DNA from: a virus
Reading direction: 5' to 3' (one strand)
Virus record (IMG/VR): IMGVR_UViG_3300009503_000018
Span: 1-64,000 of that record
Length of the DNA stretch: 64,000 nucleotides
Shown piece after piece: positions 8,825 through 40,717 of the stretch. A program made the translations under genes and the position numbers. Below the pieces are notes generated by a model. It made no database searches. It was not told where the DNA came from and saw nothing but the letters and a program-made list of their open reading frames with translations. The number at the start of each line of letters is the position of its first letter. Position 1 is the stretch's first letter.

Positions 8825-9199
8825 CTAGTCTTTTCGCATTAACAGCTCTTTACTCCGAAATACATCCTTTGACGACACTGTATGCAACGCTCGACGACTG
8901 AGCCAATGACGAGAGGCTTTCTTTTGATATTTGTTCAGACATTCTTCTCGGCGTTTTTCTAGTTCGGTTTTAATCTCTTCTACTAAAGACACGTCTTTGG
9001 ATAATCCCGCATGTTCAAGAGCCTCATGATACATGTCTTCAGCCCACGAAAATAGCTCAATAGCCCGCTCATCGTGTTCGAGGCACATTTCATAGGCTGC
9101 GGCGGCACGAGAAGCCCATTTGATGGCAGTTTCTGTTTCGATCTGTTCTTCGTCTTTTTCGCGCAATTCTTTTCGCGCTTCTTCAATTTTTAACCGCAT
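8825..9199 (-). CDS. Hypothetical helical protein
   Basis: 124 aa; C-terminal LSRRA motif. Confidence 0.65.
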   Translation of the reverse strand: MRLKIEEARKELREKDEEQIETETAIKWASRAAAAYEMCLEHDERAIELFSWAEDMYHEALEHAGLSKDVSLVEEIKTELEKRREECLNKYQKKASRHWLSRRALHTVSSKDVFRSKELLMRKD

Positions 9200-9209
9200 A
9201 ATTATTCTC

Positions 9210-10154
9210 CTATGTTCGATTTTTTCTTTTTGGCTTCATAGGAGGATATCCCTTTTTGCGAAAATCTTGAGCAAGCGTAATTGCGCTTCGCACAAGGGCT
9301 TTCGCTTTCTTGTGTACTTCGATATCTTCAGAGAGCCGCTGTTTATCATACGCATAATCTTCATTGGGAACCGCCGAAAATCCGACATAATACGGATCAG
9401 GATGAAACATCAAAAAGTCGTCATTGCCATCGTACAGTTGTTTTGCGACGAGTTCAATATAAGAAATATCCATGTTATGGATACCTTTTTCAGGATTTTC
9501 TTGGTCTTTGGACGTAATAAAATAGGCACAGACTTTTCCAAACAATCGGGGGTCGTAGTGGACTTCGTGTTCGGTGGAAAGGCGAATCATTTTTTGTCGC
9601 CACGCCTGATCTTTGAGGGCGAATTCTTCTGGAGCCACGTAATATCCACCATCGAGACTAATACAGCGATCCAGCAATGCCTTAAGCCGCGTAGACATAG
9701 AAGACTGATTCACCCCTGTAGAAATCAACAAGACATCGGCTCGCAAAATCAACGGATACAATTGCTGAGCGCCCTCGTGAGGATAAGGAAAGCAATTACA
9801 CGGAAATCCACATAAGGCAGAACAGGTCGCTAAACAATTATTGCATGGCTCAATCGTATATTCATTTAAATGCACACGTTCGATATGAATCGGCTCATCG
9901 GAAGAAATCTCTTCTAGCCCTTTTTCAAGGAGCATCGTCGAATTAGAAATTTCCCGTGAGCAATTATTCACGCCACGACCAGACCCAAAAAGCGCCAACA
10001 CTTCAAGAGGGCGGTCTTTCTTTTTCCAATATTCGACCGCTTCCTGACACCGCCGGACATTGGTTTCGTGTCCTTTTCGATATTCGGAAAAATCAACGTC
10101 AGGCGCGTTCGATCCATACCGAATTTCTTGCCACTGTGTAAATGTCAATGCCAT
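9210..10154 (-). CDS. Flavodoxin-fold NAD(P)H-dependent FMN reductase / iron-sulfur flavoprotein
   Basis: LFGSGR...SNSTMLL, IEPCNNC...C...PCNC, ADVLLISTGV...MSTRLKALLDR. Confidence 0.8.
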   Translation of the reverse strand: MALTFTQWQEIRYGSNAPDVDFSEYRKGHETNVRRCQEAVEYWKKKDRPLEVLALFGSGRGVNNCSREISNSTMLLEKGLEEISSDEPIHIERVHLNEYTIEPCNNCLATCSALCGFPCNCFPYPHEGAQQLYPLILRADVLLISTGVNQSSMSTRLKALLDRCISLDGGYYVAPEEFALKDQAWRQKMIRLSTEHEVHYDPRLFGKVCAYFITSKDQENPEKGIHNMDISYIELVAKQLYDGNDDFLMFHPDPYYVGFSAVPNEDYAYDKQRLSEDIEVHKKAKALVRSAITLAQDFRKKGYPPMKPKRKNRT

Positions 10155-13100
10155 TATTTCTTTTTTCGCAGACGGATGTAGATATCCTCCGACCCATCTT
10201 TTGTTTTTTCGACAACGTCTGGTCGAAGCGGCAGGGTTTCCCCTTGTAATATGGGAGTTCCGGGTTCAAACTCTTCCTGTGTATTCAATTTCCATTTGCG
10301 AAAAAATTCAATTGGTGGTTCTTTTTCTTGATGCTTTGCTGCGGCCCGTTCAGATTCTTCCGGCGCGCCCGGAACGCCCGGCTCAGGAAGGAAATTTTCC
10401 CCTTCTAACATGCGGACTAATAAATCGAATAATTCTTTTGATGCACGCTTCCGTCGCATAAAAACAACATCCGGTTTTCCAAATTGGCTCACATCCCACT
10501 CCTTTGGTGCCATTTCTTCGCTAAACGGCACTCGCTTATATTCTACAAATCCTTTCGACGTATACAAATTCGTAAGGAATCCTTCAAATGCGTCTAATGT
10601 CTCAGCCCCTTGTGAAAGGGCATGCTCGACGGCAGCGGCACCGGCACCACGAATCGGGCTCGCATTGAATACCGAAACAAGATCATTTTCCGGCGTAATC
10701 GCGTACCCAGTCTGTTCATCGGTAGACAAATATGTTCGCATTTTTCGATAATCATCCAGGCTATATCCGCTGAGAAATCCTAAATATCTTTGCACTTTTG
10801 GCGAAGTTTTTGCTCGTTCAATTGCCGCATAAAATTGCTCGGCCGGGACTTGACGAAACACAACCTGCGCCGTTTTTATCTGTACACGAGAGTTTTGCTT
10901 TTGTAAAGATGGTGTACCGGGCGTATGATCAGGATCGTACCCAGGAGGTTCGTCGCCTTTCCCAAATCCACGACTTGGGGCATTCAAGAATAGATGCGTC
11001 AACAAACAGCCTCCAAAGCCATAGCCGTATTCCCCCCATCCCGCCTGCGTCGGATTTACATCCGCACCCCCGGCATTATCGGCAGATTGTTCATGAATAT
11101 TCGAATCAATCGAATCCCCAAACCCACTCCCAGACGGACCACCAGAATCCGCAGACTTTACCAATGGAGGAACATAAAATGTACACCCACGACACGCCTC
11201 GTGTGTTTGACCTGCCCAAAATGTCGAACAGTCTCCGCCGCTATCATCGGATTCTCCGTCAGCCGATTTTTTCGACAATGACTGAACATAAAAATAATCC
11301 GATACTGCCTTCCGCAGTCCTGGACCAAAGACCCTTCCGTATTTAAGAAATACGGCTTCTTTGTCTTCGCCATTTTGGATATCGTAAATGGCATTCGCCA
11401 GCGCTTTTGATTTTTTCGTAAACTCGTCAATACTCGCAATATAGCGCTTTTGAATAGAAGATCCGGGTACGATTCGTGTAACATCGGCCCAAACATACGA
11501 ACCAGCGATTTTATCCGCGTCGGTATCATGGACCAGGTAATACATGCTCCCATATTGATACAGAGGAACGGGAATAGATGCGGATGATGCACGAATCATT
11601 GGCTTGACTGGTACTCCAAGCACGCGCGATGTCGGAACCCATCGAAATCCTTCGTGGATTAAATCACCGTATAACCGATCCTCACGACTAATCGGGGCGT
11701 GCGCCAAATCCAATGCCGACATTCCCTCGTGAATTAACGAATCAAATTCTGATTTGTAACGATCCACATCGGCGCGGTATTCGTCTGTAAACGGCAACGC
11801 ATAAAGGGCATCAACCAAATCTCCGACCGGAACCGGTTCTCCACGCACGACTTTCGCGAGTGTCTCTAATGCCGATTTATATTCCTCTTTCGCAAATTCC
11901 GTTCCAGAATTCGCTATATACTCTTTCCACTTGTCTTTTGCCCGATGATATGCTTGACTATACAACTTTCCCAGATACCGTTTTCTCCACCAATCGTTGT
12001 ATCCTTGGACCAATGGGTGATCGCGGCGAGACTTGGCTTTGTCGCGCAAAAACACGACTAAGGAATCGTCCAGGTTTGGTTTGGTTTTCGTAAACCAATG
12101 TCCGAAATCGTGATTCCCGGCACTCACGACCCATTGCGTATACAGCGTTGGAGAAATCGTTGATGGATCAGCCGTTGAAAAGTCACCTAAATCAGCGAGG
12201 TCGATATGCGAACACCGCCCCAAATATTTTTTCCACGCTTGAATATCATCCAAATCAGCAAAGACATGAGGAAGTTCTTTTTCGACCCATTCTCTTGGCG
12301 GACTCAAATGATACTGATACGCGTCGAGAGAACCCACGTATTCACCAATAGATTTCGCATAATCAACAACACGCCGAGCGAAATCCGCAAACCGCTCACG
12401 CAGATCACGAGGCATTTCTAAGAGCAACGGCTGATGCTTTTCTTCTTCTCCCTTGTCTTTTTTGTCTTTTGGTATTGGAGAAACATCGACAGCAACTTTA
12501 CCCGACAATTGGCGTTGAGGTCCCGGCATCTGCACATCAAACGACACCGGTTCATGTGTGTCAAATACACCACTTTGTTCTGCGCTTTGCTTTCTTCGAC
12601 CAATCTCATACCATGCCCACGGATCAACTTGAAGCATACGCGAGACCATAGAATGCGTCGAATTTAAAATTCCATCAATGTATACAAGAGGAGAAGACCG
12701 ACCTTCGACGACATCTTTCCGCAAGAGCAACTCGTCAAGGCTTTGCAATTTCTGGGTAAGAAATTCGACTTGAGCCGGAGCAAGATATTTTTTGGCTTTC
12801 CCCGCAAATATCGCGACGGCTTGCGCAGCTTGTTCATAAGCTTGCAATGAAGATTTTCTCTCGGCATCTTGTATCGCGTCATGCGCCCGCCGCCATGCCG
12901 ACCACAAATCTGGTGGGACACGTTCTTGTTCCCATTCTTCCGTTTGCGGCGCAAGAAAAAATAATGGGTCATCGTCTTCTGCGGTTTTTGTGAAAACGGC
13001 ATAGGCTGTTGCGAGTGGACCCCGTTCGGGACGATAGATCGGCGGGACCCGTTTGCGGCGCCTCGTGTCATCGTCATTGACCGTTGGGCTAATAGGCTGG

Positions 13101-13750
13101 AGCGGAATCCCAATGCTATCGGATGGTCGAAATTCCAATTCTCCTCGTTGCATCGGCGCGGCATGGAGCCCAGATTCAGCACCAAATGGTTCCCCAGAAG
13201 CCAATGACCCCGAACCGCCACCCCATTCGTTTTTGATCGTGTCTCCAGGAAATTTATCTTTTGGGGGGTTCCTTTTAAACGGAGGAACAGCGGCCAATCG
13301 GTACAGTAAATCCCGGAGACGAGAAGCCAGTTTTCCTTGTGTCGGTTCCGCCATATCAGCAAATTCTCGCACCGTCATTGTTTGGAATTTTTTAATTATC
13401 TCTTCCACATCTTGCCAAGCCCGTTCTTTCCCTTTCCATGCCCGCTCTCGATGATAAAGCAGTGTTCCAACTTGTTCTATCCAACGCTCTTTTCCTGTTT
13501 GCAAAAATATTTCCACATCGGTTGCCCAATACTCGCCTCGCAGAGGATAAATAAAAATCCGGATACGTAATAATACGTACCACGGTTTTCCGTCAACGAT
13601 AATCGGAATGTCCCGGTCTTCCCAAAACATATCACCGCTATGACCACCGCTATGATATGGCTCTTGGGTAAGACTCGTGATTAACGGTGTTCCGCTTTCA
13701 GGACTATTTCTCAAGTATTCATATAGGGTTTGTGTAGTAAACTCGGGCAT
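10154..13750 (-). CDS. 1198-aa mosaic protein with C-terminal GNAT-like domain
   Basis: TGYAI...DLVSVFN...RGAGAAAVEHALSQGAETLDAFEGFLTNLYTSKGF...VPFSEEMAP.EW; other modules unrecognised. Confidence 0.75.
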   Translation of the reverse strand: MPEFTTQTLYEYLRNSPESGTPLITSLTQEPYHSGGHSGDMFWEDRDIPIIVDGKPWYVLLRIRIFIYPLRGEYWATDVEIFLQTGKERWIEQVGTLLYHRERAWKGKERAWQDVEEIIKKFQTMTVREFADMAEPTQGKLASRLRDLLYRLAAVPPFKRNPPKDKFPGDTIKNEWGGGSGSLASGEPFGAESGLHAAPMQRGELEFRPSDSIGIPLQPISPTVNDDDTRRRKRVPPIYRPERGPLATAYAVFTKTAEDDDPLFFLAPQTEEWEQERVPPDLWSAWRRAHDAIQDAERKSSLQAYEQAAQAVAIFAGKAKKYLAPAQVEFLTQKLQSLDELLLRKDVVEGRSSPLVYIDGILNSTHSMVSRMLQVDPWAWYEIGRRKQSAEQSGVFDTHEPVSFDVQMPGPQRQLSGKVAVDVSPIPKDKKDKGEEEKHQPLLLEMPRDLRERFADFARRVVDYAKSIGEYVGSLDAYQYHLSPPREWVEKELPHVFADLDDIQAWKKYLGRCSHIDLADLGDFSTADPSTISPTLYTQWVVSAGNHDFGHWFTKTKPNLDDSLVVFLRDKAKSRRDHPLVQGYNDWWRKRYLGKLYSQAYHRAKDKWKEYIANSGTEFAKEEYKSALETLAKVVRGEPVPVGDLVDALYALPFTDEYRADVDRYKSEFDSLIHEGMSALDLAHAPISREDRLYGDLIHEGFRWVPTSRVLGVPVKPMIRASSASIPVPLYQYGSMYYLVHDTDADKIAGSYVWADVTRIVPGSSIQKRYIASIDEFTKKSKALANAIYDIQNGEDKEAVFLKYGRVFGPGLRKAVSDYFYVQSLSKKSADGESDDSGGDCSTFWAGQTHEACRGCTFYVPPLVKSADSGGPSGSGFGDSIDSNIHEQSADNAGGADVNPTQAGWGEYGYGFGGCLLTHLFLNAPSRGFGKGDEPPGYDPDHTPGTPSLQKQNSRVQIKTAQVVFRQVPAEQFYAAIERAKTSPKVQRYLGFLSGYSLDDYRKMRTYLSTDEQTGYAITPENDLVSVFNASPIRGAGAAAVEHALSQGAETLDAFEGFLTNLYTSKGFVEYKRVPFSEEMAPKEWDVSQFGKPDVVFMRRKRASKELFDLLVRMLEGENFLPEPGVPGAPEESERAAAKHQEKEPPIEFFRKWKLNTQEEFEPGTPILQGETLPLRPDVVEKTKDGSEDIYIRLRKKK

Positions 13751-13752
13751 GG

Positions 13753-15084
13753 TTACGCCCTCATGGACTGCTCAAGACCACACCAGACACACATCGTCTG
13801 ATCGACGGGATCACGATTTGTAGCGGTTAATTTCCGCGTGCATACGGAACAGCCGACAGCGGACAAAGACACGGTTGAAGGATCATTTTCTGGTGACATA
13901 ATCCCTTCTTGTGGAATGCCACGATACCCAGTCCCGCTGGGGTTCGTATTTTGCCGTTCATACGACAACAAAAAATCTTCAGTATTATCAACTAAATCCG
14001 TTGGCGTTCCCGTGCCAGTCACATACATTGGCAATCCTGAAGCGATTTGCTCGCGAGCACGATCCGTGGACAACAAATGGGAGAGGACTTGATCCATTTG
14101 ATCAAAAAATTCTAACGCCTGTTGTGTCATGTCTCGCGTTCCGGCAGGAACCAATTCTAAGGCGACCCGTGTATCGCTTGGGTATAACACGTCCCGAATT
14201 TCATAATCGGGCATGCGATCAGCAAGAAATGCCCGCACGGTATTTGGATCCCTGGCAAATGCCCCCTCAATGAGCATGTATATCGTTCCATCGTGTCGTT
14301 TTTCTATGTCTTGGACGGTAAGACTGGCTTTTGTCCGCTTTTGCAAACCCACCATGTACGCGACCCCATTCTTACGCACGAAATCTCCCGTCAGGATAAA
14401 TATCCCTTCTGGGGAATCAATGCGACAAACCGACGCCGCCGACCGCATAAATTCGCATTCGATTTCCGCCATCCGTGGTACGGTCAATTCATCCGCCGCG
14501 TAACGCACAATTGCCATTTTTCTCCCGGAAGGAATGGGCGTCACATACAGCCGCTCACCCCATTGTGGCTGTGAATAACTCGCGCGGACAATCTCCCGCA
14601 ATTCCTCTTCCGTCAATCCAGCCAATTTTCGCAATTCCTCGTACACTTTCGTTGGTTGTGGTCGATTCCCTGGATTGACAATTTCACGTTTGAGTTCGAG
14701 CAGCAAATTCCGAATCCGCATGTGCGTCGTGCCTGACTGCGACATGTATTCCTGAAGTTTTGTTTTGAGCAGATCGCGACGATCACGGAGTTCTTTTACC
14801 GGTTTCCCTAACTCTGCTTCCACGTCACGGACCAACTGCTCTGCCTGTTCGATTGCCTTGCGCATGAACTCGGCCTTGCGTTCCTCTAAGGCACGAACGA
14901 TGTTTTCTAGTTCATAAAATTCACGCTTAAGCATCGCCAATTCCCGCTGAGTCAACACGCCCACGACAAGAAGAGAACCGTAGCGTCCTCGAAATGCCAA
15001 AATGTCTTGGCACGCCGCACATCGTTGACCAGTAGTCGGCACGAACAATTTTTCACAAGACACACAAAAACTTAGCGATTCCAT
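13753..15084 (-). CDS. Mosaic hypothetical protein (terminal Zn-ribbons, coiled coil)
   Basis: 443 aa; CxxC pairs at both termini. Confidence 0.7.
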   Translation of the reverse strand: MESLSFCVSCEKLFVPTTGQRCAACQDILAFRGRYGSLLVVGVLTQRELAMLKREFYELENIVRALEERKAEFMRKAIEQAEQLVRDVEAELGKPVKELRDRRDLLKTKLQEYMSQSGTTHMRIRNLLLELKREIVNPGNRPQPTKVYEELRKLAGLTEEELREIVRASYSQPQWGERLYVTPIPSGRKMAIVRYAADELTVPRMAEIECEFMRSAASVCRIDSPEGIFILTGDFVRKNGVAYMVGLQKRTKASLTVQDIEKRHDGTIYMLIEGAFARDPNTVRAFLADRMPDYEIRDVLYPSDTRVALELVPAGTRDMTQQALEFFDQMDQVLSHLLSTDRAREQIASGLPMYVTGTGTPTDLVDNTEDFLLSYERQNTNPSGTGYRGIPQEGIMSPENDPSTVSLSAVGCSVCTRKLTATNRDPVDQTMCVWCGLEQSMRA

Positions 15085-15974
15085 GTGTTATCCCGCTTCG
15101 CGACGCGAATTTTTGGAATCAATGTAAACTCTCCCTGTTTCACCGCATTGCTAAATTTGGACAACGCAATCCGTTCTCGGCCCCCATTCAACCATTGGAC
15201 CGATACGAATTTTCTCCCAACAAAGCGGACCAGTCCAACGCCTTTTTTAGCAACTAGCTTTTGTTCTAAGACCGGTGTTTCTTCCTGCACACGACTTTTA
15301 CTTTCTCCTTCTTTCGATTCATCAGAAGCTTCGGTCCGTGATTTCAACACATCACGATAGCTCGCCGCTTCTTTTGCGTAATACTCTTCGACCAGTTGCC
15401 GCGCCGCTTGATGATCATATCCCAAGCTGCGAAGTCGGTGATAATGCATTACTGCGCGGTATTTGAGTCCTGAAGATTCTCCAACTTCCGCAAGGTCGCT
15501 CTTTTCACGAATTTCTTCTTCACACGACTCTAGCTCTTTTTGTTGCTTGCGAATTTCATCATAGACTTTTTCCTGTTCAGAACTCCAAACCACGACTTGG
15601 TCTTTTCCTGTGTTTTTACCAATAACAAGAGCTTTATGGGCTTCTTCTGGTTTTTTACCGATACCTACCGTCGCCGTATGATTCGTATGCTTTTTGTAAA
15701 TCGCACGAACCGCATCACCAATTTCTTTGGGATCTCCGTCAATAGTAAAAAAGAGATTGTCGCCCCCGTAAAAAATGACGGTTCCACCATGCTCAGTCAC
15801 ATATTCTTCGACTTCAGCAAATGCGCTTTTGATTTGCTTTTCAAATTTTTGGGACTTCGCAAGGTCGTTTTCTTCCAGCGCTTCTTCGACGGTTTTTCCC
15901 ATATCGTCGCCATCCATGCCGACGAACCATTCTCCAGGAGCGGTCCCTACGTTCATTGTGATGTCTTCTGCCAT
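15072..15974 (-). CDS. Protein with N-terminal minimal CRISPR polymerase (mCpol, Cas10/GGDEF-like palm) domain
   Basis: FVGMDGDDMG...GGTVIFYGGDNL...TATVGIG...AHKALVIGKNTGKDQV matches the mCpol pattern (xDGDDxG, GGD, SxGIG, AxxALxxAKxxGK). Confidence 0.8.
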   Translation of the reverse strand: MAEDITMNVGTAPGEWFVGMDGDDMGKTVEEALEENDLAKSQKFEKQIKSAFAEVEEYVTEHGGTVIFYGGDNLFFTIDGDPKEIGDAVRAIYKKHTNHTATVGIGKKPEEAHKALVIGKNTGKDQVVVWSSEQEKVYDEIRKQQKELESCEEEIREKSDLAEVGESSGLKYRAVMHYHRLRSLGYDHQAARQLVEEYYAKEAASYRDVLKSRTEASDESKEGESKSRVQEETPVLEQKLVAKKGVGLVRFVGRKFVSVQWLNGGRERIALSKFSNAVKQGEFTLIPKIRVAKRDNTWNR

Positions 15975-15988
15975 ATCACTTACCTAAT

Positions 15989-16222
15989 TTATCCAATATC
16001 TTCTGGCGCGCGTTCTGTAACAACAAAGTCGTGCATGCCCAGCCAAATTTCACGCCGATTAATAGCGCCCCAAACGTCCCGATCAAAATATATGTGAAAG
16101 TGGTTAACCGTCCCCGACGGATTATCGCCAACAGCAATGATGCTTCCTTTCTCTCCGCAAAATCTATGAGGCGGAGAAACTTCGATTTTATCTCCAACTC
16201 GCGGATAATATTTGGCCGCCAC
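15989..16222 (-). CDS. Small SH3/KOW-like protein
   Basis: YPRVGDKIEV...GEKGSIIAV. Confidence 0.6.
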   Translation of the reverse strand: MAAKYYPRVGDKIEVSPPHRFCGEKGSIIAVGDNPSGTVNHFHIYFDRDVWGAINRREIWLGMHDFVVTERAPEDIG

Positions 16223-16237
16223 GTATTTTCCGCTCCA

Positions 16238-16615
16238 TTAGTTGGTGTCAGTCGCTGCATAAAGCGTAATCCCTCGGACTTCAGATGACGAAGGATTCGA
16301 CGCAAGAATACCGGAAATTGTCGCGAACATAACAACCGTATTACTCACGGGAATACTTACCGGAGAGCCATTAAATTTTACATTAATCGCTCCATCCGTG
16401 AGCAGGACAATAACTTTTGCCGTATTCACATTTCCCATATTCAGAGGAACATCAACGGCATTAGCCGGCAAATTAAACTTCATTGCTCCACTGGCTTCGG
16501 CTGCGTTCATCAACGTGTCCGCAATATTATCTATTATAGTTACGGTCGCTCCGCCAGTTGGTGTCTCGTTGAGTTTTCCGGCGACAAAATCAACGCGTCG
16601 TAGTGGCTGTGGCAT
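16238..16615 (-). CDS. Putative virion structural protein
   Basis: 125 aa, beta-rich, A/S/T/N-rich. Confidence 0.55.
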   Translation of the reverse strand: MPQPLRRVDFVAGKLNETPTGGATVTIIDNIADTLMNAAEASGAMKFNLPANAVDVPLNMGNVNTAKVIVLLTDGAINVKFNGSPVSIPVSNTVVMFATISGILASNPSSSEVRGITLYAATDTN

Positions 16616-16625
16616 GTTCTCCTCC

Positions 16626-17849
16626 TTACTCTACTTTTACTTGGCGTGGTCCTGAATTTGGTCGTTTCGCAATATCTGCTAACGACACAGGAGCTTCTGG
16701 AGCTTCAGTCCCTGGAGGTTTTGGCTGTTTAGGTCCAGGGCCCATCGCCCGTTCAAATGCTGCTTGCTCCTCCCACTGCACTTTTTCCCATGCTTTGGTT
16801 GCCCCTTCATATAACTCTTCAGGTGGATTACTGTAATTTTGTCGCATGTATTGGACCAAATCCCACACCCCAATGCGAATTCCTTTATATAACGCATTAC
16901 GAATCAACATCTCTGCTTCCGTAATAATTTCATGTCGTGATAATGGGCGACCAGGTCCACCGACCTGCGGTTGGGGTCGATCTCCTGCGGGGGCTTGGAT
17001 TGGTCCTGTTGGTGTCGAAGACGAGGGAACCGGTTGTGCGATTTTCCTTTGGGCTTGATGATAAGGTCCAAGAATATAATCGTGCGGCACAGCAAGAAGT
17101 TCATCCCCATGACGGATAATGTATTGATAGCCATCATCGCGCACGATCTTTCCCGGCACAACCCCGAGCGTTGGATGAGAAAACTTCACTAAATCACCGA
17201 CTTCCCAATGATATCCACTATTCTTGAGTAGCGCGTTTTTACTCAATGGAGTTCGAACCGCTTCATAGACCATGCCACACTGTGGACACGATTTTTCTGG
17301 ATCTTGTGGATCTTTTCTCTGCAAATACGCCCCATCATGTTGACAATGCTGCGGACGACGATGTGGAAACGCTGCTTTTTTGGACAATCGAGACAACCGA
17401 CGAGCATACGTCGTCCCTGTCCCCGGTTCGATCCGTTGTGCTTCCCCTGGAGCGGGAGTAGGGCCCCCCTCTTCCCCTGACTGCGCTGGTGTAGTCGGCG
17501 TGCTTTTTGGATAGACGCGCGGAGCCGATCCGGGCTGCATATGGGGGATGTTGTATTGCTGTCCCGATTCGTCAACAACAACAACCTGTTGTGACGTATT
17601 TGTCAAAATGCGCATCTTCTTCGGTGTACCATCCGCCATCGTCAATTCGACTTCTTGACCTGGAGCTAAATTGCGCAAGTCTTGAGCCGTTTTTATTCGC
17701 GCTTTTGCGATATAGGTGTATGCTGCCGTGCGATTTGCAAATTCCCACGCCAAATCATGCCCCCATATTGCAGTGATAGGGGATTCAGTATCAGCAATAA
17801 CCCGATACTCATGACCAGACAACAATACACAATCAGCGAGATATTTCAT
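16626..17849 (-). CDS. Mosaic hypothetical protein (KOW-like modules, Zn ribbon, Pro-rich linkers)
   Basis: 407 aa; LSKKA, LSKNA, KTAQ, KIAQ at module junctions. Confidence 0.7.
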   Translation of the reverse strand: MKYLADCVLLSGHEYRVIADTESPITAIWGHDLAWEFANRTAAYTYIAKARIKTAQDLRNLAPGQEVELTMADGTPKKMRILTNTSQQVVVVDESGQQYNIPHMQPGSAPRVYPKSTPTTPAQSGEEGGPTPAPGEAQRIEPGTGTTYARRLSRLSKKAAFPHRRPQHCQHDGAYLQRKDPQDPEKSCPQCGMVYEAVRTPLSKNALLKNSGYHWEVGDLVKFSHPTLGVVPGKIVRDDGYQYIIRHGDELLAVPHDYILGPYHQAQRKIAQPVPSSSTPTGPIQAPAGDRPQPQVGGPGRPLSRHEIITEAEMLIRNALYKGIRIGVWDLVQYMRQNYSNPPEELYEGATKAWEKVQWEEQAAFERAMGPGPKQPKPPGTEAPEAPVSLADIAKRPNSGPRQVKVE

Positions 17850-17855
17850 ACATAT

Positions 17856-18194: not shown

Positions 18195-18529
18195 CCAAAC
18201 AGCGTTTTAATCACATAATTAAATACCACAACCCCGACTCCACCCCCCAAAATCCCAGCCAGCGCCGACACTAGAGCGACGGTTGTTTTTACCGACAACG
18301 AAAAGGATTCTAGATTTGAAACCCGCGTATCCAACGCCTCACGAATTTTCTCTTGTTTTTCTTCGAACCGTTGCAAAAGTTCTTGGAGGGTGTTTTCGAC
18401 ACGAACCAAAGCAGCCTGCTGATCTTTTTGGCTCTCGCACAAATAGTTTAGGCGGGTGTCAACTTCTCCGCGCCATCGACTCCAATCATGTCCATTTGGC
18501 AGTGTTGACTTTGCCATAGTTTTTGCCAT
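18185..18529 (-). CDS. Coiled-coil protein with single C-terminal TM helix
   Basis: VALVSALAGILGGGVGVVVF. Confidence 0.65.
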   Translation of the reverse strand: MAKTMAKSTLPNGHDWSRWRGEVDTRLNYLCESQKDQQAALVRVENTLQELLQRFEEKQEKIREALDTRVSNLESFSLSVKTTVALVSALAGILGGGVGVVVFNYVIKTLFGWK

Positions 18530-18531
18530 AA

Positions 18532-18765
18532 TTATTGTACCGTGACATCCTTTGGTCGTTCAATCGGAGTAACCGTAATGCGATATTCCATTGGCCAATT
18601 CGTTTCAGGGTCGTGATCACGCACAACCGCTTCGGTTCCCTCCGCGAACCAATTCACTCGGACGCGTTCATAGTGTTCCGGAAGACCCCGGAGCACATCA
18701 TGCATAACTTTTGTCGTAAACGTTACCGCCTTTTTATTAAAAAGATTTCTTGCGAAAACCTTCAT
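18532..18765 (-). CDS. Hypothetical protein
   Basis: 77 aa, tiles with neighbours. Confidence 0.55.
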   Translation of the reverse strand: MKVFARNLFNKKAVTFTTKVMHDVLRGLPEHYERVRVNWFAEGTEAVVRDHDPETNWPMEYRITVTPIERPKDVTVQ

Positions 18766-18778
18766 TTGTCCTCTCTCC

Positions 18779-21700
18779 CTATCGTGGTCTATGCGTGTAT
18801 GGTCCGGTCGATGTCGGCGTCAGATCAGCAACATCGACTTGGAACTGCCGACGCTGACTGTCTTCGACCGTTGCGCGATTTCCAGTATTGTCAATGGCAA
18901 TAACCAAAACTTCCCGTCCACGATACATTGCGGGTTGGAAAATGCCCATCCCCTTGTCAAGAAGGGCTTTCTTTGACAAGGCGACACTTGCCGTGCTCTT
19001 CTTCTGATGACTAAAGTAATGAACTTGCTTTAGTCTCTTTTTGGCCTGTTCTCGCGTCTTATACGGACCACCGAGATTTTTGCCCTCCTCCGATTTTACA
19101 TAATATGCTCCCGGTCGTCCAACAATCTTCCCCACCAAAAGGCGCGCGGATAAGAGTCTCGTAGTCCCAATAAACCATCGTGCTAACTCGTCTGCCTCAT
19201 GAGAAGCCAATTTTCCAGATGCTTTGTAAAAGCGCAAAATCTCTCGAATATCCGCAATGGACAATGCATGACGATATTCAGTAATTGCTTGCTTCAAATC
19301 GCCGGAACGGCGAAATGCCGCGTGTACTTTTTGCTGCACGGCACGATTTGCTTGTCTCTTTGCCTCATAATCTTCTAGATCCCCTCCATACAGATACTCC
19401 CCGCATTGTGAACAATATTGTGGGGAGTCGCTTTCACCGAAAAAGATCGGTTGTGGAGTGATATCCGAATCATACATATCCGCGTCAGGAATAACATTCG
19501 GACCTTGAGCGATAATTTCCGAACCACAATCAGGGCAGTAAATCTCTCCTTGATAGACATACCCATCAAGACCCGGACCACCGAGAAGCAGCTCGGATTT
19601 TGTCACAGCCGTCTTCCTTCGGGCTTCATGACTCCCTAAATTTCCCCCATACAGATACGCCCCGCATTGTGAACAATGCTGTGGGAGTTCATGTTCACCG
19701 AAAAAGATCGGTTGTGGAGTGACATCTGAGTCGTATGCATCTTCATCAGGGACGACATCCGGACCTTGAGCGATAATTTCCGAACCACACGGAATACAAT
19801 AGAGTTCCCCGCGATAAACATACCCATCAAGACCCGGACCACCACGAAGCAATTCAGACTTTGTTGCCGCTTCTTTTGTCGTTGACTTCCATGACGGATA
19901 TTCATCACTCTCTCGGGGATACAACGCGCTTTGATCAGCACGTGGAGTCTCTCGTGGAGCTTGGCTCACCTGATCCGGCCGTTCCATATATTCAGTCTCC
20001 CACGGCGCTTTATACCACCACGCGGTCTTGCGTACTGCTTGTCGCCGCTTGAGCAAATTCCACTGGCGCTGTGCCTCTTCTCGTGTCTCGGGATCTGTTT
20101 CTGGATCATTGATAATATTAAACAACGCCCGAAGCTTTTCTTGAATGTCAGACGATTCTTGAGCAATGAGTTGTCTTCGCGATAATGCTCGTGCGTTCGC
20201 ATGATGCGGATATCGCGTCCATGTCGCACGACACGTTGGACACCAATACTTGTCCTCGGTTTTCTTAATCGTTAATTCTCGACAATTTGGACACGTCCCA
20301 GATTCTAACAACATATGACGGAATCTCTTTTCTAGGTACGCAGCATCCAACTGTCTACGAGCTTCCTGCCGTTTTTCGGGATCCGCACTGGGATCAGCGA
20401 CAATATCAGACAATCGGCGAATTTTTTCGACAAGATCCCGATTCTCGGACTTATCAGACGATTCTTGAGCAATGAGTTGTCTTCGTGCCATTTTGTTTCC
20501 TTCGAGAGTCCACGTGGAATGACAACGCGGACATCGGTATCCGGTCTCGGTCTTATGAACCCGAGATTTTCCACACTCCGGGCAAAATCCAGCGTGTAAC
20601 ATATGGATAGGTTTTGGTGATGTTTTACGGATCAATTCTTGTGCAACTTCTGATACATCGCGCTGTGAATACCGATGCCGACGATATTCTTTTGGCAAAT
20701 CGTACAATTTCTTTTCACAGCGTGTGCATTCTGGCGGATAATCCTCAAGCTCCCCGAGAAAAATTGGCTGAGGGACGATATTCTCGTCATACCCCTCATC
20801 TTCGCTATACACCTCTGGACCTTTTTCGATAATTTTCCGCCCACACTCAATACAATAGGGCTCGCCTTTATAGACGTATGCTTCCAGTGCGGGTCCTTGA
20901 TAAGCCGTTAACAGGTCTTCTTTTGTCCACTGGCTTTGGCGGCGGAAAGACTGTTTTTTTGATTCCTCCGGCGCGTCGGCTTCTTCTTTTTCTTCCGTGA
21001 CAAAATCCTGTAATTGTTCTGTAGCATGTTCAAGATGTTCGACCGTTTTCTCTAGTATTCGAACTTCCTCCGGCTCGACCCCTTCCGCTTTTTCATGTTC
21101 AAGGACATCCTTGACATGTTCGGTTACATGTTCGACATCGGACTTTAGCGTTTCGACAATTTCCTCTTCTAGTAGCTCTTCCGGATCACCAACGAAATCA
21201 AATCCCAATTCTTTTGGCGTCCCAGTATCGACAACTTCTAATTCAATGACTGGAACTTCCGTATCTCCAATTCCTGGAAATGCGACAACGGCAAAATTAT
21301 CGTTTGCATACCGCAAAAAGAGCGCTTCTTTCCCGTTGACACGCACCACATCACCTCGGGCAAATCTCTTTTCGGCTGTTCCGACGACCTGCCGTTCGGC
21401 GAGAGCAGAACTAATTTTCGTTAACTGCCGAAGATATATCTTCACACCGCCGTGCGACTGAAGTCCCGCAGAAATCAAAATCGCATTCGCCTGCTCCCAC
21501 GACATTCCAAATTCATAAATAAGAGCCTGCTCCACGCTATCGCGGGAGAGGTATTCACGCGGTTGTCCTTTTCCAGTATACAGGGTATAGACAAATGAAG
21601 CGCCAGACGTTGCACTCCGTCGGCACGTGATATACGCAGTCGGTGGGATCCGCTTCCACACCTCTCGCTCTTTCTTGAGTTTTTCATTATGCTGATCAAA

Positions 21701-21892
21701 CCATGCGTCTGCGATCTTCACTTGATGACTTGAAAACCGACCACATTTTACGCAATGGTAGTCCACCGTCCCTTGAACATGTTGTGGACCAACCGTGATC
21801 GACGCAGTCCGTTCGCACCAAGGACAAACCACATCAACTGATCGCGAGGATGTGAGTGCCTGTGCAACATCGAGCCCTGATAATTTCGTCAT
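18779..21892 (-). CDS. 1037-aa modular protein with three 4-Cys YxGExYCxxCG...PQPIF...CxxC modules, Zn ribbons and KOW modules
   Basis: Internal repeats visible in protein and DNA (19375-19900); RRQLIAQESS x2. Confidence 0.8.
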   Translation of the reverse strand: MTKLSGLDVAQALTSSRSVDVVCPWCERTASITVGPQHVQGTVDYHCVKCGRFSSHQVKIADAWFDQHNEKLKKEREVWKRIPPTAYITCRRSATSGASFVYTLYTGKGQPREYLSRDSVEQALIYEFGMSWEQANAILISAGLQSHGGVKIYLRQLTKISSALAERQVVGTAEKRFARGDVVRVNGKEALFLRYANDNFAVVAFPGIGDTEVPVIELEVVDTGTPKELGFDFVGDPEELLEEEIVETLKSDVEHVTEHVKDVLEHEKAEGVEPEEVRILEKTVEHLEHATEQLQDFVTEEKEEADAPEESKKQSFRRQSQWTKEDLLTAYQGPALEAYVYKGEPYCIECGRKIIEKGPEVYSEDEGYDENIVPQPIFLGELEDYPPECTRCEKKLYDLPKEYRRHRYSQRDVSEVAQELIRKTSPKPIHMLHAGFCPECGKSRVHKTETGYRCPRCHSTWTLEGNKMARRQLIAQESSDKSENRDLVEKIRRLSDIVADPSADPEKRQEARRQLDAAYLEKRFRHMLLESGTCPNCRELTIKKTEDKYWCPTCRATWTRYPHHANARALSRRQLIAQESSDIQEKLRALFNIINDPETDPETREEAQRQWNLLKRRQAVRKTAWWYKAPWETEYMERPDQVSQAPRETPRADQSALYPRESDEYPSWKSTTKEAATKSELLRGGPGLDGYVYRGELYCIPCGSEIIAQGPDVVPDEDAYDSDVTPQPIFFGEHELPQHCSQCGAYLYGGNLGSHEARRKTAVTKSELLLGGPGLDGYVYQGEIYCPDCGSEIIAQGPNVIPDADMYDSDITPQPIFFGESDSPQYCSQCGEYLYGGDLEDYEAKRQANRAVQQKVHAAFRRSGDLKQAITEYRHALSIADIREILRFYKASGKLASHEADELARWFIGTTRLLSARLLVGKIVGRPGAYYVKSEEGKNLGGPYKTREQAKKRLKQVHYFSHQKKSTASVALSKKALLDKGMGIFQPAMYRGREVLVIAIDNTGNRATVEDSQRRQFQVDVADLTPTSTGPYTHRPR

Positions 21893-21955
21893 AATTCCCT
21901 CTTCATTACATATAACGCTTTTTTTGTCAGACCTTCGAGTTTCTTCCTTTTATCC

Positions 21956-22393
21956 CTATAAAGTTTCACCGGTAAGGGCATAATACGCCTTTTGAACACG
22001 ATCTGCTAAATCCAATTCCCCCATATAAACTGCATTATTGTACAATATTCGAAGTTCGTAGGCCGTCATGTCATATGCATAAAACAGAGCGTCACGCTCT
22101 TCTTGCATCTCGTCAGAAAGTTCCGGCTCTTCTGGAGTCGGCAAAGAAGGAGAAGGCTTCCGGGGTTTTCCTGGGGACTTGAGTCTCCGTTTACTCGGGT
22201 CAAACTGCAAAATTTCGGCGGCAGTAATTTTTAACCCCGATTTTGGCAATTCTGTCCATGTATAAGGAATCTCCCGAGGAGTCGGACCTAAAACTTTCTG
22301 TCGGTCACGACCAACGGGTTTTTGTTCTACGCGATACATGTCCCGACTTTTTTCCAGCCAAGCCGCTTTTTTTGATAATGGTATTTTTTTCAT
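21956..22393 (-). CDS. Hypothetical protein
   Basis: 145 aa; PLSKKAAW and KITAAE motifs; a degenerate paralogous mini-ORF (MKILSKKAALLEKRLKITAAEVVKYD) starts at about 22488. Confidence 0.65.
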   Translation of the reverse strand: MKKIPLSKKAAWLEKSRDMYRVEQKPVGRDRQKVLGPTPREIPYTWTELPKSGLKITAAEILQFDPSKRRLKSPGKPRKPSPSLPTPEEPELSDEMQEERDALFYAYDMTAYELRILYNNAVYMGELDLADRVQKAYYALTGETL

Positions 22394-22488
22394 GATTTAA
22401 ACACGCCTTTTTATCATATTTACAACTTCAGCCGCCGTAATTTTCAATCTTTTTTCAAGCAAAGCCGCTTTTTTTGATAATATTTTCA

Positions 22489-25065
22489 TTATTGCATCAC
22501 TTCAGTCAATGTATCAGCAAGCTGACGCGCAATTCCCCGCCCGCGCCAATGCAGTGGAATTTCCACAACCCGCAATTTCAGTGGATTACATTCTACGCTC
22601 AATCGGGCCCGAGCAATCATATGAAATGCAGTCACGATATTCCCTGTTTTTATCATCACAACAGGACTCCAACACGCCTTGAGTTTACTCTCGATGTGTT
22701 TTCTTCTCCACCGAACAGATTCCATTTCTTTTCTTCGTAATTCTTTTCTTTGTTCTGGTGTCAAATGAGAAATATCCGTTCCATACAAGCTCGGATAGCC
22801 AGTCCGGCGAGACCACATCCGATAATCACGCAGCATTTGCTTGGTCTCATCGGTGAACGCGGGTTCCATCCAATACATCGCATGTTCGCTTCCCTTCGTA
22901 TCCAAAGCATCATCAATCCATCTTGAGGGATCTCCGGGCCAACTTTTCCCGCTAAAAATATTCCCGGTATTGTGTTGCAACGTATTGATTTGATCTATCA
23001 GGATCCCCAAATACCGCCACGGCATGTTTCGACGCAACGCTTCTTGAAGTTGCAACGCGCGAATAGCAGCCAAAGCCCATCGCGGACCTCCCCAATTCGA
23101 AGCCGACAAATCGGTATTAAACGCCCGAGCCAAATCAGCTAAGTCCGCGCTTTGTAAGTCATCTATATCATCTCGATATACTTTTTTATTCAAAATTTTT
23201 TCCATTTCTAGGATATTCGAAAATTCTTCGTTCCATTGTTCTTGCAATATTCCTTCTTCATCTTCTTCTTTTTCTTCTCGTTCGACTGTCTCTTCTGTTG
23301 GTCCTGTTGCGGCGAGGATTTCACCGGTTGTTCCGTTAATCATAATCAAGGTTCCGACATCGAGAGTCTTCCCATCTGGAAACTTAACTTGATTATCGTC
23401 TATGGTAAATCCGGCCCCTGTCACACACGGTTTTCCCATTTGCCGGGCCACGATCGCGGCATGCGCTGTAGGACCTCCATGCGCCGTCAGAAATCCCACA
23501 GCCGCATTCATCGCAGAAATATCTTCTGGCGTTGTCTCGGGCCGTACCAAAATTACTGGCCCTTCTTGTGCCATTTGAACCGCCATTTCGGCAGTTGTCG
23601 CAATACGCCCGGTCGCTGTCCCTGGAGAAGTCCCAATCCCTTTTGCAATTACTGCGCGATCAGCAAATTCTTTCACCCAATCTGGTGGAACGATGTTGGG
23701 GTATTTTTCAAAAAACTGTTCCAAATCGGGGTCAGTTTGCGTTTGCAACAAGACATTCTTATATCGTTTCCATGCCGCCGTGAGATCTGGTTGGATTTCT
23801 TTCCAAATCAACGCATCATATTCATCGGGGTTTTTCGTATTGTACAGTGGTTTCACACCAACGATTGTCAAAAATACATCATCAGCATCTGTACTTAAAA
23901 TATCCTCATAGCCTTTTAGGCGCTCAACCGCTTGAGCAATTTCCTGTTCATCTAATGCATTTATCAATCGCTTGAGTTGCACCAAATATTTGAATTTCTT
24001 AAGCTTCTCTTCGTCGAGTTGTTCGCGTAGGGTTTCACCAACTGGCGCCACCGTTGTAAGCACGGACTCAGGATGCGCAATCAATGCGCGTTCAAAAAGA
24101 CGCCAGGAAGACGGCTTATATGTGGAGCGAATCGTAGACCACGGCACCCATTGATTACGCTCGGGGTCGAACAAAGAAAAATCAAACCATTTTGAAGTAT
24201 CAATAGTAATAGGAGGCGGTTCCGACCGCGCTGGGAAAAGTCGCTGTCGTGGCTGTGCAATAATACGCCAACCAGATTTTGTGACTTCTGGCTGTTCTTG
24301 CTGTTCTTGCTGTTCTTGTCTTGGCGTAATGTGTGGTAATATTAATTGGACTTGACCTGTCGTATCGAGAAATGCTCGTCCACATAACGGGCACCGATAC
24401 GGTTCTCCAGGCAATTCTACAGGAGTAATACTCTCATAATCCACTTCAACTTCATCTGGCTGCGGATAAGGTTGGAATTGGTGTTGATGATGTTCTTCCC
24501 AAAAATCCCCAGCGTAAGGCGCCTCTTCGTCGTCCGGTAACATATCCGTTTCAGCGGAGCACCCCAAATATGTTACCCCTGTCTTATCAGTAAAATTCAC
24601 GCATTTGTATGTTTGGTCCCCTACGAGAGCCCACATGTGCGGTTTTTTGTCTCCACACTCCACACAACGGTGTCTTAACGATGTGTCCTCATACTCATGC
24701 AAATATTTGTCTCCGCAGGAATCACAAGTGTGGTATAACGTGCCTTCGGCAGTAAAGTCATGTTCGTCTGTTTCGCCGCAAACCTCACAGGAATGATAAC
24801 CTTTATTATCCGTCGACCATTCATGCACGTGTTCTTCTTCTTCTTCTTCATTCTTTATAGCTGTAAGAGTGTGGTCAGCTTCTGTGCGGACGAAGTCTTC
24901 AAGCTGGGAAGCATATTCTCGTGCGAGGGGGAGCACAATTTCTTCCGCATATCTATCCCATTTAGGAAATGCTCGATAAAATGCGGGCGGAAGTTGCATG
25001 ACCGCATAAAAATTGTACAGTTCGTCTATAGCGACAGCGCGACGAATGAATCGGGGTCGTGTCAT
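22489..25065 (-). CDS. Mosaic protein with PEP-utilising enzyme mobile (phospho-His swivel) domain and H..CxxCG repeats
   Basis: AKGIGTSPGTATG...ILVRPETTPEDISAM...GFLTAHGGPTAHAAIVARQMGKPCVTG...INGTTGEI (about 23320-23650). Confidence 0.85.
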   Translation of the reverse strand: MTRPRFIRRAVAIDELYNFYAVMQLPPAFYRAFPKWDRYAEEIVLPLAREYASQLEDFVRTEADHTLTAIKNEEEEEEHVHEWSTDNKGYHSCEVCGETDEHDFTAEGTLYHTCDSCGDKYLHEYEDTSLRHRCVECGDKKPHMWALVGDQTYKCVNFTDKTGVTYLGCSAETDMLPDDEEAPYAGDFWEEHHQHQFQPYPQPDEVEVDYESITPVELPGEPYRCPLCGRAFLDTTGQVQLILPHITPRQEQQEQQEQPEVTKSGWRIIAQPRQRLFPARSEPPPITIDTSKWFDFSLFDPERNQWVPWSTIRSTYKPSSWRLFERALIAHPESVLTTVAPVGETLREQLDEEKLKKFKYLVQLKRLINALDEQEIAQAVERLKGYEDILSTDADDVFLTIVGVKPLYNTKNPDEYDALIWKEIQPDLTAAWKRYKNVLLQTQTDPDLEQFFEKYPNIVPPDWVKEFADRAVIAKGIGTSPGTATGRIATTAEMAVQMAQEGPVILVRPETTPEDISAMNAAVGFLTAHGGPTAHAAIVARQMGKPCVTGAGFTIDDNQVKFPDGKTLDVGTLIMINGTTGEILAATGPTEETVEREEKEEDEEGILQEQWNEEFSNILEMEKILNKKVYRDDIDDLQSADLADLARAFNTDLSASNWGGPRWALAAIRALQLQEALRRNMPWRYLGILIDQINTLQHNTGNIFSGKSWPGDPSRWIDDALDTKGSEHAMYWMEPAFTDETKQMLRDYRMWSRRTGYPSLYGTDISHLTPEQRKELRRKEMESVRWRRKHIESKLKACWSPVVMIKTGNIVTAFHMIARARLSVECNPLKLRVVEIPLHWRGRGIARQLADTLTEVMQ

Positions 25066-25068
25066 AAC

Positions 25069-26250
25069 TTAGAAGAACTTGTGGAATTCCTTTTTACTCA
25101 AAATCCGCTTGGGTTTTCTACGGAACAAACTCGGAAAAGGAAAATGCCATTTCGGTAGCCGCTCCATCGTAGTACGGGGTTCAACTTTTGGCAATCCGAC
25201 ATATTCTCGAATCGCTTCCTCCATCACTCCTTCCGGCATAGCAACAGGTCTCTTTTCATTAATCTCGTTGATGATTTGGCTGTAAACTTTTTCTTTTTTT
25301 CTTTTTGTTAAATTCAAATCACGAAGTTGGTTCTGTAACAAATACGCTGCGATTACAGAAGGCGAACGGTTCATTCCCTCTCGACAGTGAACATAAATAT
25401 TCTTGCCTTCGCTCGTCCAACGTTCGAGGGTTTCCACCGCACGGCGAATATCCTGGAGACGACGAGCATTTCCTTCGGGCGATTCATCGAATTCATCGAT
25501 TGGGATATGTACATATTCTACATCTGGAGGTGGTGAATACGTATTTTGACTCACATTCAAAATGGCATCAAACGGTTTCCCCGTCTGACGATCACGCATT
25601 AACCACGCATTGATAATATCTCCAAGCCAGATATTTGGCGTAATTTGATCGGCTTTAATATCCTTTCTGTCCATATATTTTGTCAATAAAAATTGGACTA
25701 TACGGGACATATGAGGGCCGTGCTGCACTTTTGGCGGTGCGGAGAACCCTTGCGGTACAGAAAACAGTTCCGGTTGTGATGGCCGGGACAAATCACGTTC
25801 AACATATCCGCATGTGTTACAAAAATAATAAGGCTCTTTACCAATTTCGACCATCCCTATACCCGAACCACAATGTGGACATTTCCCAAAACTAATATCC
25901 TTTGAAGGATCAGGATCTTGATATTCGGGAAATTCTTCAAATTCAAAATCTTGATATTCTTCGGGGATTTCTTCGTGATATTGTTTCCAATGCTCCGATT
26001 GGTACAATTGTTCATTGGGGCTCAAAAGAACCGTTTGTCCACATTCTGGACACTGGATATTCCATGCTGAATATTTAACAATACTCTTTTTCGATAATGC
26101 TGTGGATTTACGATGTTTTTTCCAATGTTCCGATTGGCGAAGATTCTCGTGCGCCTGGAGAACGACCATCTGCCCGCACTCAGGGCATTGAACGATATCC
26201 CAACCCCATGCTGAAAATTTAACAATACTCTTTTTCGATAAAATACGCAT
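25069..26250 (-). CDS. Dual-specificity (PTP-like) phosphatase with N-terminal Zn ribbons
   Basis: QITPNIWLG, AILNV, VHCREGMNRSPSVIAAYL (CX5R motif). Confidence 0.88.
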   Translation of the reverse strand: MRILSKKSIVKFSAWGWDIVQCPECGQMVVLQAHENLRQSEHWKKHRKSTALSKKSIVKYSAWNIQCPECGQTVLLSPNEQLYQSEHWKQYHEEIPEEYQDFEFEEFPEYQDPDPSKDISFGKCPHCGSGIGMVEIGKEPYYFCNTCGYVERDLSRPSQPELFSVPQGFSAPPKVQHGPHMSRIVQFLLTKYMDRKDIKADQITPNIWLGDIINAWLMRDRQTGKPFDAILNVSQNTYSPPPDVEYVHIPIDEFDESPEGNARRLQDIRRAVETLERWTSEGKNIYVHCREGMNRSPSVIAAYLLQNQLRDLNLTKRKKEKVYSQIINEINEKRPVAMPEGVMEEAIREYVGLPKVEPRTTMERLPKWHFPFPSLFRRKPKRILSKKEFHKFF

Positions 26251-40610: not shown

Positions 40611-40717
40611 GCATAAACATAGCACTCGCGCATTGACAAAATTCACGAACCCGTGTATGATAGGCTTTCCCGTTAACAAAGGAGACCCTTATGGCTAAGA
40701 AGGCACAGACGATGTAC
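40607..40717 (+). promoter_or_regulatory. Promoter-RBS-MAKKAQ cassette copy 3
   Basis: TTGACA 40633-38, TATGAT 40656-61, ATG 40691; 290 bp from copy 2. Confidence 0.9.

Follow-up and report, generated by a model that had tools for sequence, protein, structure and literature searches.

In phage T4, the diverse and fast-evolving internal proteins IPI-III and Alt carry a common short leader, and the cleavage motif of the gp21 protease is also present in the capsid protein, the scaffold and the protease, with host-modifying enzymes among the cargo (PMC9026906, PMC3012670). A short motif likewise marks the sites at which gp175 of phiKZ and gp245 of SPN3US cut many head and ejection proteins, the large ones at multiple sites (PMC5694885, PMC10052503, PMC7411985). 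Here we describe a motif of comparable distribution in the first 64 kb (64,000 nucleotides, hereafter the window) of the linear 139.5-kb IMG/VR viral contig IMGVR_UViG_3300009503_000018, for which CheckV estimates a completeness of 77%. The motif, L-S-K-K or a shorter [KR]-x-A form, recurs in a block of genes at 8.8-26.3 kb and in genes from there down to the portal, and an initial annotation of the window had proposed it as this lineage's protease or capsid-targeting code. As in T4, the motif core occurs in the capsid protein, scaffold and protease as well, putative host-modifying enzymes are among the predicted cargo, and some of the diverse, fast-evolving proteins start with what may be a common short leader. 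Unlike the Leu/Ile-x-Glu of T4 and the Ser/Ala/Gly-x-Glu of phiKZ and SPN3US, the motif is basic-x-Ala or LSKK; the cargo would consist of long multi-module chains with many internal sites. The protease also departs from that of T4, being without a match to S77, of the phage G gp19 type and fused to a scaffold. In contrast to phiKZ and SPN3US, the genome is ~140 kb, belongs to another lineage with no phiKZ-type genes seen, and has its putative cargo genes together in a single syntenic block, on the upstream side of the portal.

For the polyvalent proteins of phages and conjugative elements, packaging and action on entry have been predicted, with their domains possibly freed by proteolysis (Iyer et al. 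2017, PMC5512222); the description of that class does not include a defined junction motif common to head proteins, as seen here. The block proteins resemble them, with their two to fifteen unrelated domains per chain, in joining unrelated domains in one mosaic polypeptide, as judged from Pfam and AlphaFold2 (AF2) domains and from fusions and shuffles among relatives. They also adjoin portal head genes, on one contig in a relative (L016/L017) and by contig-end adjacency here. Unlike many polyvalent proteins, they have no match to MuF (PF04233) or MPTase (PF18818) at E up to 1, and their domains are of another set: mCpol, a dual-specificity phosphatase (DSP), a PEP-utilizer swivel domain, SCP2 and zinc (Zn) ribbons. 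By sequence, the block at 8.8-26.3 kb and the genes down to the portal appear to form a conserved set of fast-evolving, multi-domain proteins of polyvalent type.

Herpesvirus assemblin cuts its protease-scaffold precursor at Val/Leu/Ile-x-Ala, followed by Ser. The prohead protease of our contig is similarly fused to a scaffold; one candidate site follows the protease domain and a second lies close to the C-terminus of the scaffold, and if cut after Ala these sites would have the same P1 Ala and a defined P3. The P3 residue here is basic, not aliphatic, and herpesviruses have no cargo polyproteins.

Our favoured reading, which we judge to have an even chance of being correct, is that the motif serves the prohead maturation protease as a lineage-specific code of sites on head-loaded, multi-module cargo; cleavage, loading into the head and injection are what we infer from its distribution. 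Cargo proteins would be co-assembled into the procapsid together with the prohead protease, which would trim their short N-terminal leaders and cut the chains into separate modules, and the released modules would leave the head with the DNA. The cut bond may lie after Ala, as in assemblin, or after Lys. Because the motif is common to the block enzymes and to the portal, capsid and protease proteins, the block enzymes probably enter the capsid during assembly and are cleaved inside it. If the motif is a head protease site, the packaged and injected proteins of uncultivated large phages become predictable from sequence, module by module; to our knowledge, such prediction has so far been limited to phages of the T4 and phiKZ types, for which mass spectrometry had revealed the motifs. 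The mCpol cyclase and the phospho-transfer enzymes would reach the cell ahead of all phage gene expression, which bears on cyclic-nucleotide-based defences, and the drift of the motif between sister lineages, with matching drift in portal and protease, would be a natural experiment on protease-substrate co-evolution. More tentatively, the load-and-cut code of the whole clade may be readable from sequence and drift between lineages (LSKK versus R-V-T-A), with an injected proteome of mCpol, phosphatase, swivel enzyme and dozens of Zn and barrel modules that could act as pre-made counter-defence or takeover tools.

Enrichment and conservation of the motif

In the greedy whole-genome proteome (43,939 residues), LSKK occurs 10 times where 0.73 copies are expected (P 6e-9), making it the top 4-mer after Cys motifs and low complexity are set aside. 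Nine of the 10 copies fall within 645-26250, where 0.14 are expected, which bears out the LSKK part of the initial observation. Among the copies are a tandemly repeated pair, an internal repeat and a tandem paralogue; counting each of these groups once leaves at least 8 independent sites, spread over 6 protein families. In a 165-kb contig, L015, the syntenic block likewise has LSKK as its top 4-mer (6 versus 0.10 expected, P 1.4e-9), at orthologous and at new joints. The syntenic region of a 185-kb contig (L014/L016/L017) has no LSK enrichment (in L014), and M-R-[VI]-T-A recurs there instead at N-termini and at the starts of internal repeats. In Virus Rctr197k, taken as a comparator, LSK is not enriched, and its giant open reading frame (ORF), which lies upstream of the portal, has no homology with the block.

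A narrow version of the [KR]-x-A form, K[TI]A[QA], is concentrated in the block and in the head module, that is, among the portal, protease and capsid genes described below. It is found 4 times in the block (0.55 expected), 4 times in the head module (0.21 expected) and once in the remaining genome (2.1 expected), this sole outside copy being part of the helix-hairpin-helix of a 5' nuclease. The wider pattern [KR][KIVT]A[AQ], whose counts are indicative only since it was refined after inspection of the data, gave 8 matches in the block versus 2.4 expected, 7 in the head module versus 1.3 and 10 elsewhere versus 8.5. Two of these last 10 are gene starts reading M-A-K-K-A-Q; the two genes (34202-34627 and 40691-41152) are unrelated, and the likeness of their starts to the K-K-A-Q junction core is possibly coincidence.

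The two forms exchange with each other in the family of a 407-amino-acid (aa) protein encoded at 16626-17849 on the minus strand, the strand that carries the genes from ~40 kb down to base 1 of the window and to which the features given below from that region belong. An alignment of 16 members (A4) shows that a given joint may hold an LSKK-type site in one homologue and a [KR]-x-A-type site in another. The joint before the C-terminal domain reads RKIAQP in the window and RRIAQP, RRVAQP, LSKKGQP, LSKKAAP, KTAEP or KVAAP in homologues, while that after the N-terminal domain reads LSKKA here, LSKR-Q or LSKK-Q in closer homologues and R-V-T-A, R-T-A or V-R-A in a distant clade. The common core of these sequences is a basic residue, one variable residue and Ala, then Ala, Gln, Ser or Gly, with L-S-K-K-[A/S/E] as the favoured form here and R-[VI]-T-A in a relative. 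Leaders reading M-R-I-LSKK, M-K-K-I-P-LSKK and M-F-LSKR begin three families and are kept in relatives; few proteins are involved, the leaders are very short and one extra copy is a paralogue.

We also considered that LSKK is a mere translation of a DNA or RNA element, TTRTCRAAAAA, functional on the sense strand as a regulatory, nicking or slippery sequence. The sites in the window are mostly encoded TTR TCR AAA AAR, with the Leu codon always TTR, and all of the 14 window copies of the word (0.5 expected) belong to the minus strand. Relative to synonymous-codon shuffles of the block it is in excess both in frame (6 versus 2.0) and out of frame (4 versus 0.31). However, four in-frame LSK[KN] sites here break the word with AGT, TCC or AAG, and in relatives at 34-50% identity (L011-L013 and L015) L-S-K occupies the corresponding N-termini and joints while TTRTCRAAAAA is absent; Leu is encoded there by CTC, CTG or TTG, Ser by TCT, AGT, AGC or TCC, and Lys by AAG. 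The retention of L-S-K with other codons and without the DNA word indicates selection at the peptide level. The copies also share no promoter- or terminator-like context, counts of sigma-70 promoter and terminator context being at background both at the motif and between block and portal. A DNA element as the primary cause, which we hold to be highly improbable, was rejected since the relatives encode the same peptide otherwise and lack the word, leaving the out-of-frame copies unaccounted for. These four copies (10205-10215, 10741-10751, 20423-20433 and 20822-20832) lie inside block genes, three of them reading hydrophobic-[VI]-E-K, and are a small feature of this genome without explanation.

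Sites at joints and module edges

The 407-aa protein has conserved N- and C-terminal domains and a hypervariable modular middle. Its AlphaFold model (16 sequences, mean predicted local distance difference test score, pLDDT, 69.5) contains three confident domains, and the junctions L-S-K-K-A (residues 155-159; 17373-17387), L-S-K-N-A (residues 202-206; 17232-17246), directly before an SH3/Tudor-like barrel, and R-K-I-A-Q-P (residues 268-273; 17031-17048), which opens a Pro-rich linker, all lie in linkers of pLDDT below 50 that abut domain edges. Fold searches with the model returned generic Tudor/SH3-like barrels only, with no virion protein match. The 393-aa protein at 25069-26250 combines two Zn ribbons with a DSP (Pfam DSPc, E 1.6e-15) and contains LSKK three times. 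Its leader, I-L-S-K-K-S (residues 3-8; 26227-26244), has an L-S-K that is invariant in homologues at 34-39% identity; the internal A-L-S-K-K-S (residues 51-56; 26083-26100), with pLDDT below 50, repeats the N-terminus ahead of the second Zn ribbon; and the C-terminal I-L-S-K-K-E (residues 383-388; 25087-25104) ends 5 residues before the stop and aligns with an LSK junction in L011 and L015. Only residues ~200-357 are confident in the AF2 model of this protein, and all three sites are outside that domain. In the two models together, 5 of 5 LSK[KN] sites and RKIAQP fall in segments of pLDDT below 50 at domain edges, with a chance of 6/6 for randomly placed sites that we estimate at ~0.004 from the low-pLDDT fractions, a figure weakened by the shallow alignments. 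Most sites are therefore where they had been placed by the initial annotation, at module boundaries; the claim does not extend to three in-domain copies given below.

Gene fusions among relatives mark the same positions. Only 5 residues separate I-LSKK-E from the stop of the phosphatase gene, and the gene that follows, encoding an 858-aa protein with a PEP-utilizer phospho-His swivel domain (22489-25065; PF00391, E 4e-21), starts M-T-R-P-R-F-I-R-R. In L011 and L015 phosphatase and PEP-utilizer are one ORF, and LSK marks the joint there as it does in the window; the fused proteins contain one or two LSK[KN] sites, 14-35 residues ahead of the R-F-[IL]-R-[KR]-A with which their second part opens. 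A 145-aa protein (21956-22393) has the leader P-L-S-K-K-A-A at 22361-22381, and its homologue in L015, internal to a 454-aa protein, begins right after the leader position. Next to it is a 30-aa stub (22397-22489) with the start M-K-I-L-S-K-K-A, a paralogue remnant of the 145-aa gene that is intact (91 aa) in L002, a contig 92-97% identical, and has suffered a 200-bp deletion in the window. That the 91-aa and 145-aa genes are two unrelated genes with a common leader was considered and rejected, as they are tandem paralogues.

In the 1037-aa Zn-ribbon mosaic (18779-21892), sites are A-LSKK-A (18965-18982), LSRRQLIAQ (20159-20185), RRQLIAQ (20465-20485), RKTA (20021-20032) and RRKTA (19607-19621). 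The repeat modules that this protein has in addition to those of L015 each begin right after K-E-A-A or R-K-T-A, and its ALSKKALLDKG is kept in the L015 orthologue with other codons. The 1198-aa mosaic at 10154-13750 contains L-S-K-K-S (11264-11278) and I-K-T-A-Q (10865-10879). Every motif example first listed for the region was recovered from the minus strand, in the ORF given for it, the single slip being that this I-K-T-A-Q had been quoted as VKTAQ. IKTAQ lies at the N edge of a ~140-aa phage-specific module (residues 963-1100; 10157-10879; phrog_2563) with more than 900 homologues at E below 1e-10. Stand-alone forms of 134-165 aa begin at our residues 963-965, other copies are inside giant proteins of 2000-3300 aa, and in L015 the module is N-terminal, M1-A2 there falling opposite our T960-A961 in the alignment. 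Pfam, PDB and NCBIfam gave no match for the module, and the ESM Atlas holds viral hypothetical clusters only; the earlier GNAT label for these residues could not be confirmed.

At the place where our 1198-aa protein reads G-K-L-A, that of L015 reads G-K-LSKEA and then continues into an inserted Zn-ribbon cassette. A Zn-ribbon cassette that begins K-I-I-S-E-E-[KH]-E-C is found in two block protein families of several relatives (L015:14154-17537; A4), always after [KR]-x-A or LSKEA. The motif could accordingly be an inherited linker or cassette flank, a helix cap or a short recombination homology that no enzyme reads. The constant association with this cassette agrees with such an origin, as do modules that are permuted and duplicated, while the invariable TTR codon for Leu and the out-of-frame excess of TTRTCRAAAAA fit recent copying or gene conversion. 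Against this, L-S-K persists in relatives at 30-50% identity, under unrelated codons, where the linker residues around it have diverged, and the motif is also found at true N-termini, where no linker is needed. The core further occurs in portal, major capsid protein (MCP) and protease, which are not cassette proteins, and drifts along with them in L017 (see below). We therefore consider a passive flank unlikely.

The motif core in head proteins

The portal gene (1617-5006), which includes a LAGLIDADG intein, encodes an N-terminal S-K-N-A-S (4962-4976), R-R-T-A (4860-4871) and a C-terminal R-K-T-A (1713-1724), confirming the two basic motifs reported in the portal. Between portal and protease, a 166-aa protein (645-1145) has the two tandem copies of A-L-S-K-K-E already noted (1092-1106 and 1050-1064). 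The remaining head module is at the far contig end, on the same strand as the portal, and includes genes for the MCP (genome 133657-134820; phrog_2522, E 6e-56), a 249-aa protein and the sheath. Here too is the prohead protease, the N-terminal part of a 725-aa protein with a scaffold-like tail (genome 135680-137857; phrog_18299, E 3e-33). Its protease domain, taken as residues 1-260, contains a conserved Ser in an S-M-G-A-S stretch. It matches phage G gp19 and Rhodococcus E3 gp77, the type to which its sequence assigns it, and has no match to the S77 or the S78 family: a six-frame genome search gave no match to Peptidase_S77 (PF03420, the T4 gp21 family) at E up to 1, and the genome has none to HK97-type Peptidase_S78 (PF04586) at E up to 1. 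The domain has no PDB sequence match. Among the peptidases searched for in the genome (S78, S77, C1, MPTase and ClpP) none was found, leaving the prohead protease as the sole recognisable peptidase.

In relatives, the orthologue of the gene at 1118-1573 sits ~250 bp upstream of a small head gene and the protease, and block, portal, protease and MCP follow in unbroken order on one contig in L016/L017. Given this continuity, the two ends of our contig abut, placing the block directly upstream of the whole head module. With its two ends (window 1-639 and genome 138844-139527) adjoining in this way, the record is probably near-complete and circularly permuted, despite the CheckV estimate.

The core K/R-x-A-[AQS] is common to cargo, MCP, protease, portal ends and scaffold, a sharing of sequence only. 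It is at residues 4-6 of the protease, where K4 and A6 are invariant in three orthologues and which is also found in Rctr197k (29% identity). About 35 residues after the protease domain stands K-K-I-A-Q-P (K-K-A-Q-P in L007), the same type of hexamer as the RKIAQP joint of the 407-aa protein, and the scaffold C-terminal region contains S-K-R-A-A. Residues 17-20 of the MCP read K-[IVL]-A-[ASE] in 13 close homologues, and a distant MCP clade has T/S-K-K-A-S at residues 8-12; MCP homologues at 45-94% identity are frequent in metagenomes. The core also occurs at residue 20 of the small head protein, near both portal ends and in a 381-aa Cys-rich protein (6899-8044) as R-K-I-A-A (residues 16-20; 7985-7999), where the orthologues in L015 and L017 read R-R-F-T-A / G-F-V-A-R.

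Head proteins and cargo change together. The L017 portal (68% identity) has the N-terminus S-K-R-V-T-A-S versus S-K-N-A-S here, and the cargo motif of the same phage is R-V-T-A; the protease linker of the L014/L017 phage is R-R-T-A-A-P versus our K-K-I-A-Q-P. Cargo and head-protein motifs thus drift together in the two lineages compared, as a protease-substrate code predicts.

Docking without cleavage would be another use for a basic motif, which might bind scaffold, portal, capsid interior or packaged DNA and so load or hold proteins in the head, or might assemble them elsewhere. The surroundings of the motif are rich in Lys and Arg (for example, a run of 4-6 Lys before P-L-S-K-K in L015), the place beside the head genes is conserved, and the N-terminal position resembles the capsid-targeting sequence of T4, which is N-terminal. 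On the other hand, a single tag would be enough for addressing, and the presence of several motifs in a chain, at each of its joints, is more in line with cutting. In T4 and phiKZ-type phages, maturation cleavage classically takes place after the protease domain and at the N-termini of capsid, portal and protease, and these are the places where the motif stands here. We consider docking alone distinctly unlikely.

Processing or regulation could also take place in the cytoplasm, outside the virion, with the motif as a site for a host protease or another phage enzyme, or as a Lys acetylation or Ser phosphorylation site for the phosphatase or kinase-like enzymes of the block. These enzymes include a DSP and a PEP-utilizer/kinase-like protein, an AAA+ ATPase gene lies directly upstream of the block, and the L014 block includes a Peptidase_C1. 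But no second peptidase was found in our genome, neither L014 nor L015 has the AAA+ gene in a syntenic position, and the common, co-varying motif in portal, MCP and protease would be left unexplained. Ser phosphorylation as the common function was rejected, since Ser is lost where RKIAQ or RVTA replaces LSKK. We see only a slim chance for a cytoplasmic role.

Returning to a prohead protease code, the proposal of the initial annotation is supported in part, by selection at the peptide level, by sites at N-termini and joints, by the core in portal, MCP and protease, by co-variation in a relative and by a block that adjoins the head genes. Its loose consensus [KR]x[AS], offered as a recurring marker, is at chance level in the genome proteome (727 versus 740 expected), and only the narrower K[TI]A[QA] is enriched. 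Besides this count, several observations weigh against such a code. The K/R-x-A core is short and was refined after the data had been seen; MCP, protease and scaffold do not contain LSKK itself; and the N-terminal motifs of MCP and protease could be structural or mirror A-rich start regions. Co-variation was compared in two lineages only. The AF2 linker calls rest on shallow alignments (6 and 16 sequences), and some copies are in-domain: in the 407-aa protein IKTAQ (residue 53) and LSRH (residue 303), and in the repeated Zn module IIAQ. The leader ahead of LSKK is only 3-5 residues, short for a targeting peptide, and the MuF head anchor known from SPP1 gp7 gave no match at the threshold stated above. 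We found no cleavage motif in the literature for the clade of phage G and cluster C proteases. Finally, a papain-like Peptidase_C1 gene (L014:12792-13553, equivalent to L016:6070-6831) is in the syntenic block of the 185-kb contig, with no counterpart in our genome, and another enzyme may therefore do the cutting in L014.

Gene order and further members of the block

The mosaic proteins had been described as unrelated, whereas we find that they form a conserved syntenic gene set in L014/L016/L017 and in L015. The order in both contigs is as here: phosphatase, PEP-utilizer, large Zn protein, 407-aa protein, 125-aa protein, mCpol, 443-aa protein, 1198-aa protein, SCP2, Zn ribbon and 381-aa protein. 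Block proteins that still match those of L017 are 32-43% identical, while portal, protease and MCP are 53-80% identical, indicating that the block evolves faster than the head genes. The closest public relatives of the portal are from Virus Rctr197k (~42-47% identity) and Bacillus phage G (33%), and by sequence the head module of the clade appears related to those of phage G and cluster C mycobacteriophages.

The remaining members of the block are the 300-aa mCpol (minimal Cas10-like polymerase) with a C-terminal small barrel (15072-15974; PF18182, E 6e-21), syntenic in L014 and L015; a conserved 443-aa coiled-coil/Zn-ribbon protein (13753-15084); a 314-aa flavodoxin-like/FMN-reductase-like protein (9210-10154; PF03358, E 1.3e-8); and a 124-aa helical protein (8825-9199), whose L-S-R-R-A (8888-8902) is a single R-type variant of low weight. 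The end of the block is an SCP2-fold protein (8383-8703; PF02036, E 5e-18), syntenic in L015 and L017.

Three further observations concern single genes. The phosphatase tail S-K-K-E-F-H-K-F-F (25069-25104) resembles the start M-M-S-K-K-E-F-H-K-L of an unrelated 98-aa gene 32 kb away (57678-57974, also minus strand). The 657-aa portal orthologue of L017 is without an intein. The terminase homologue of the window (47885-51070), at 1061 aa, is also of a length to accommodate an insert.

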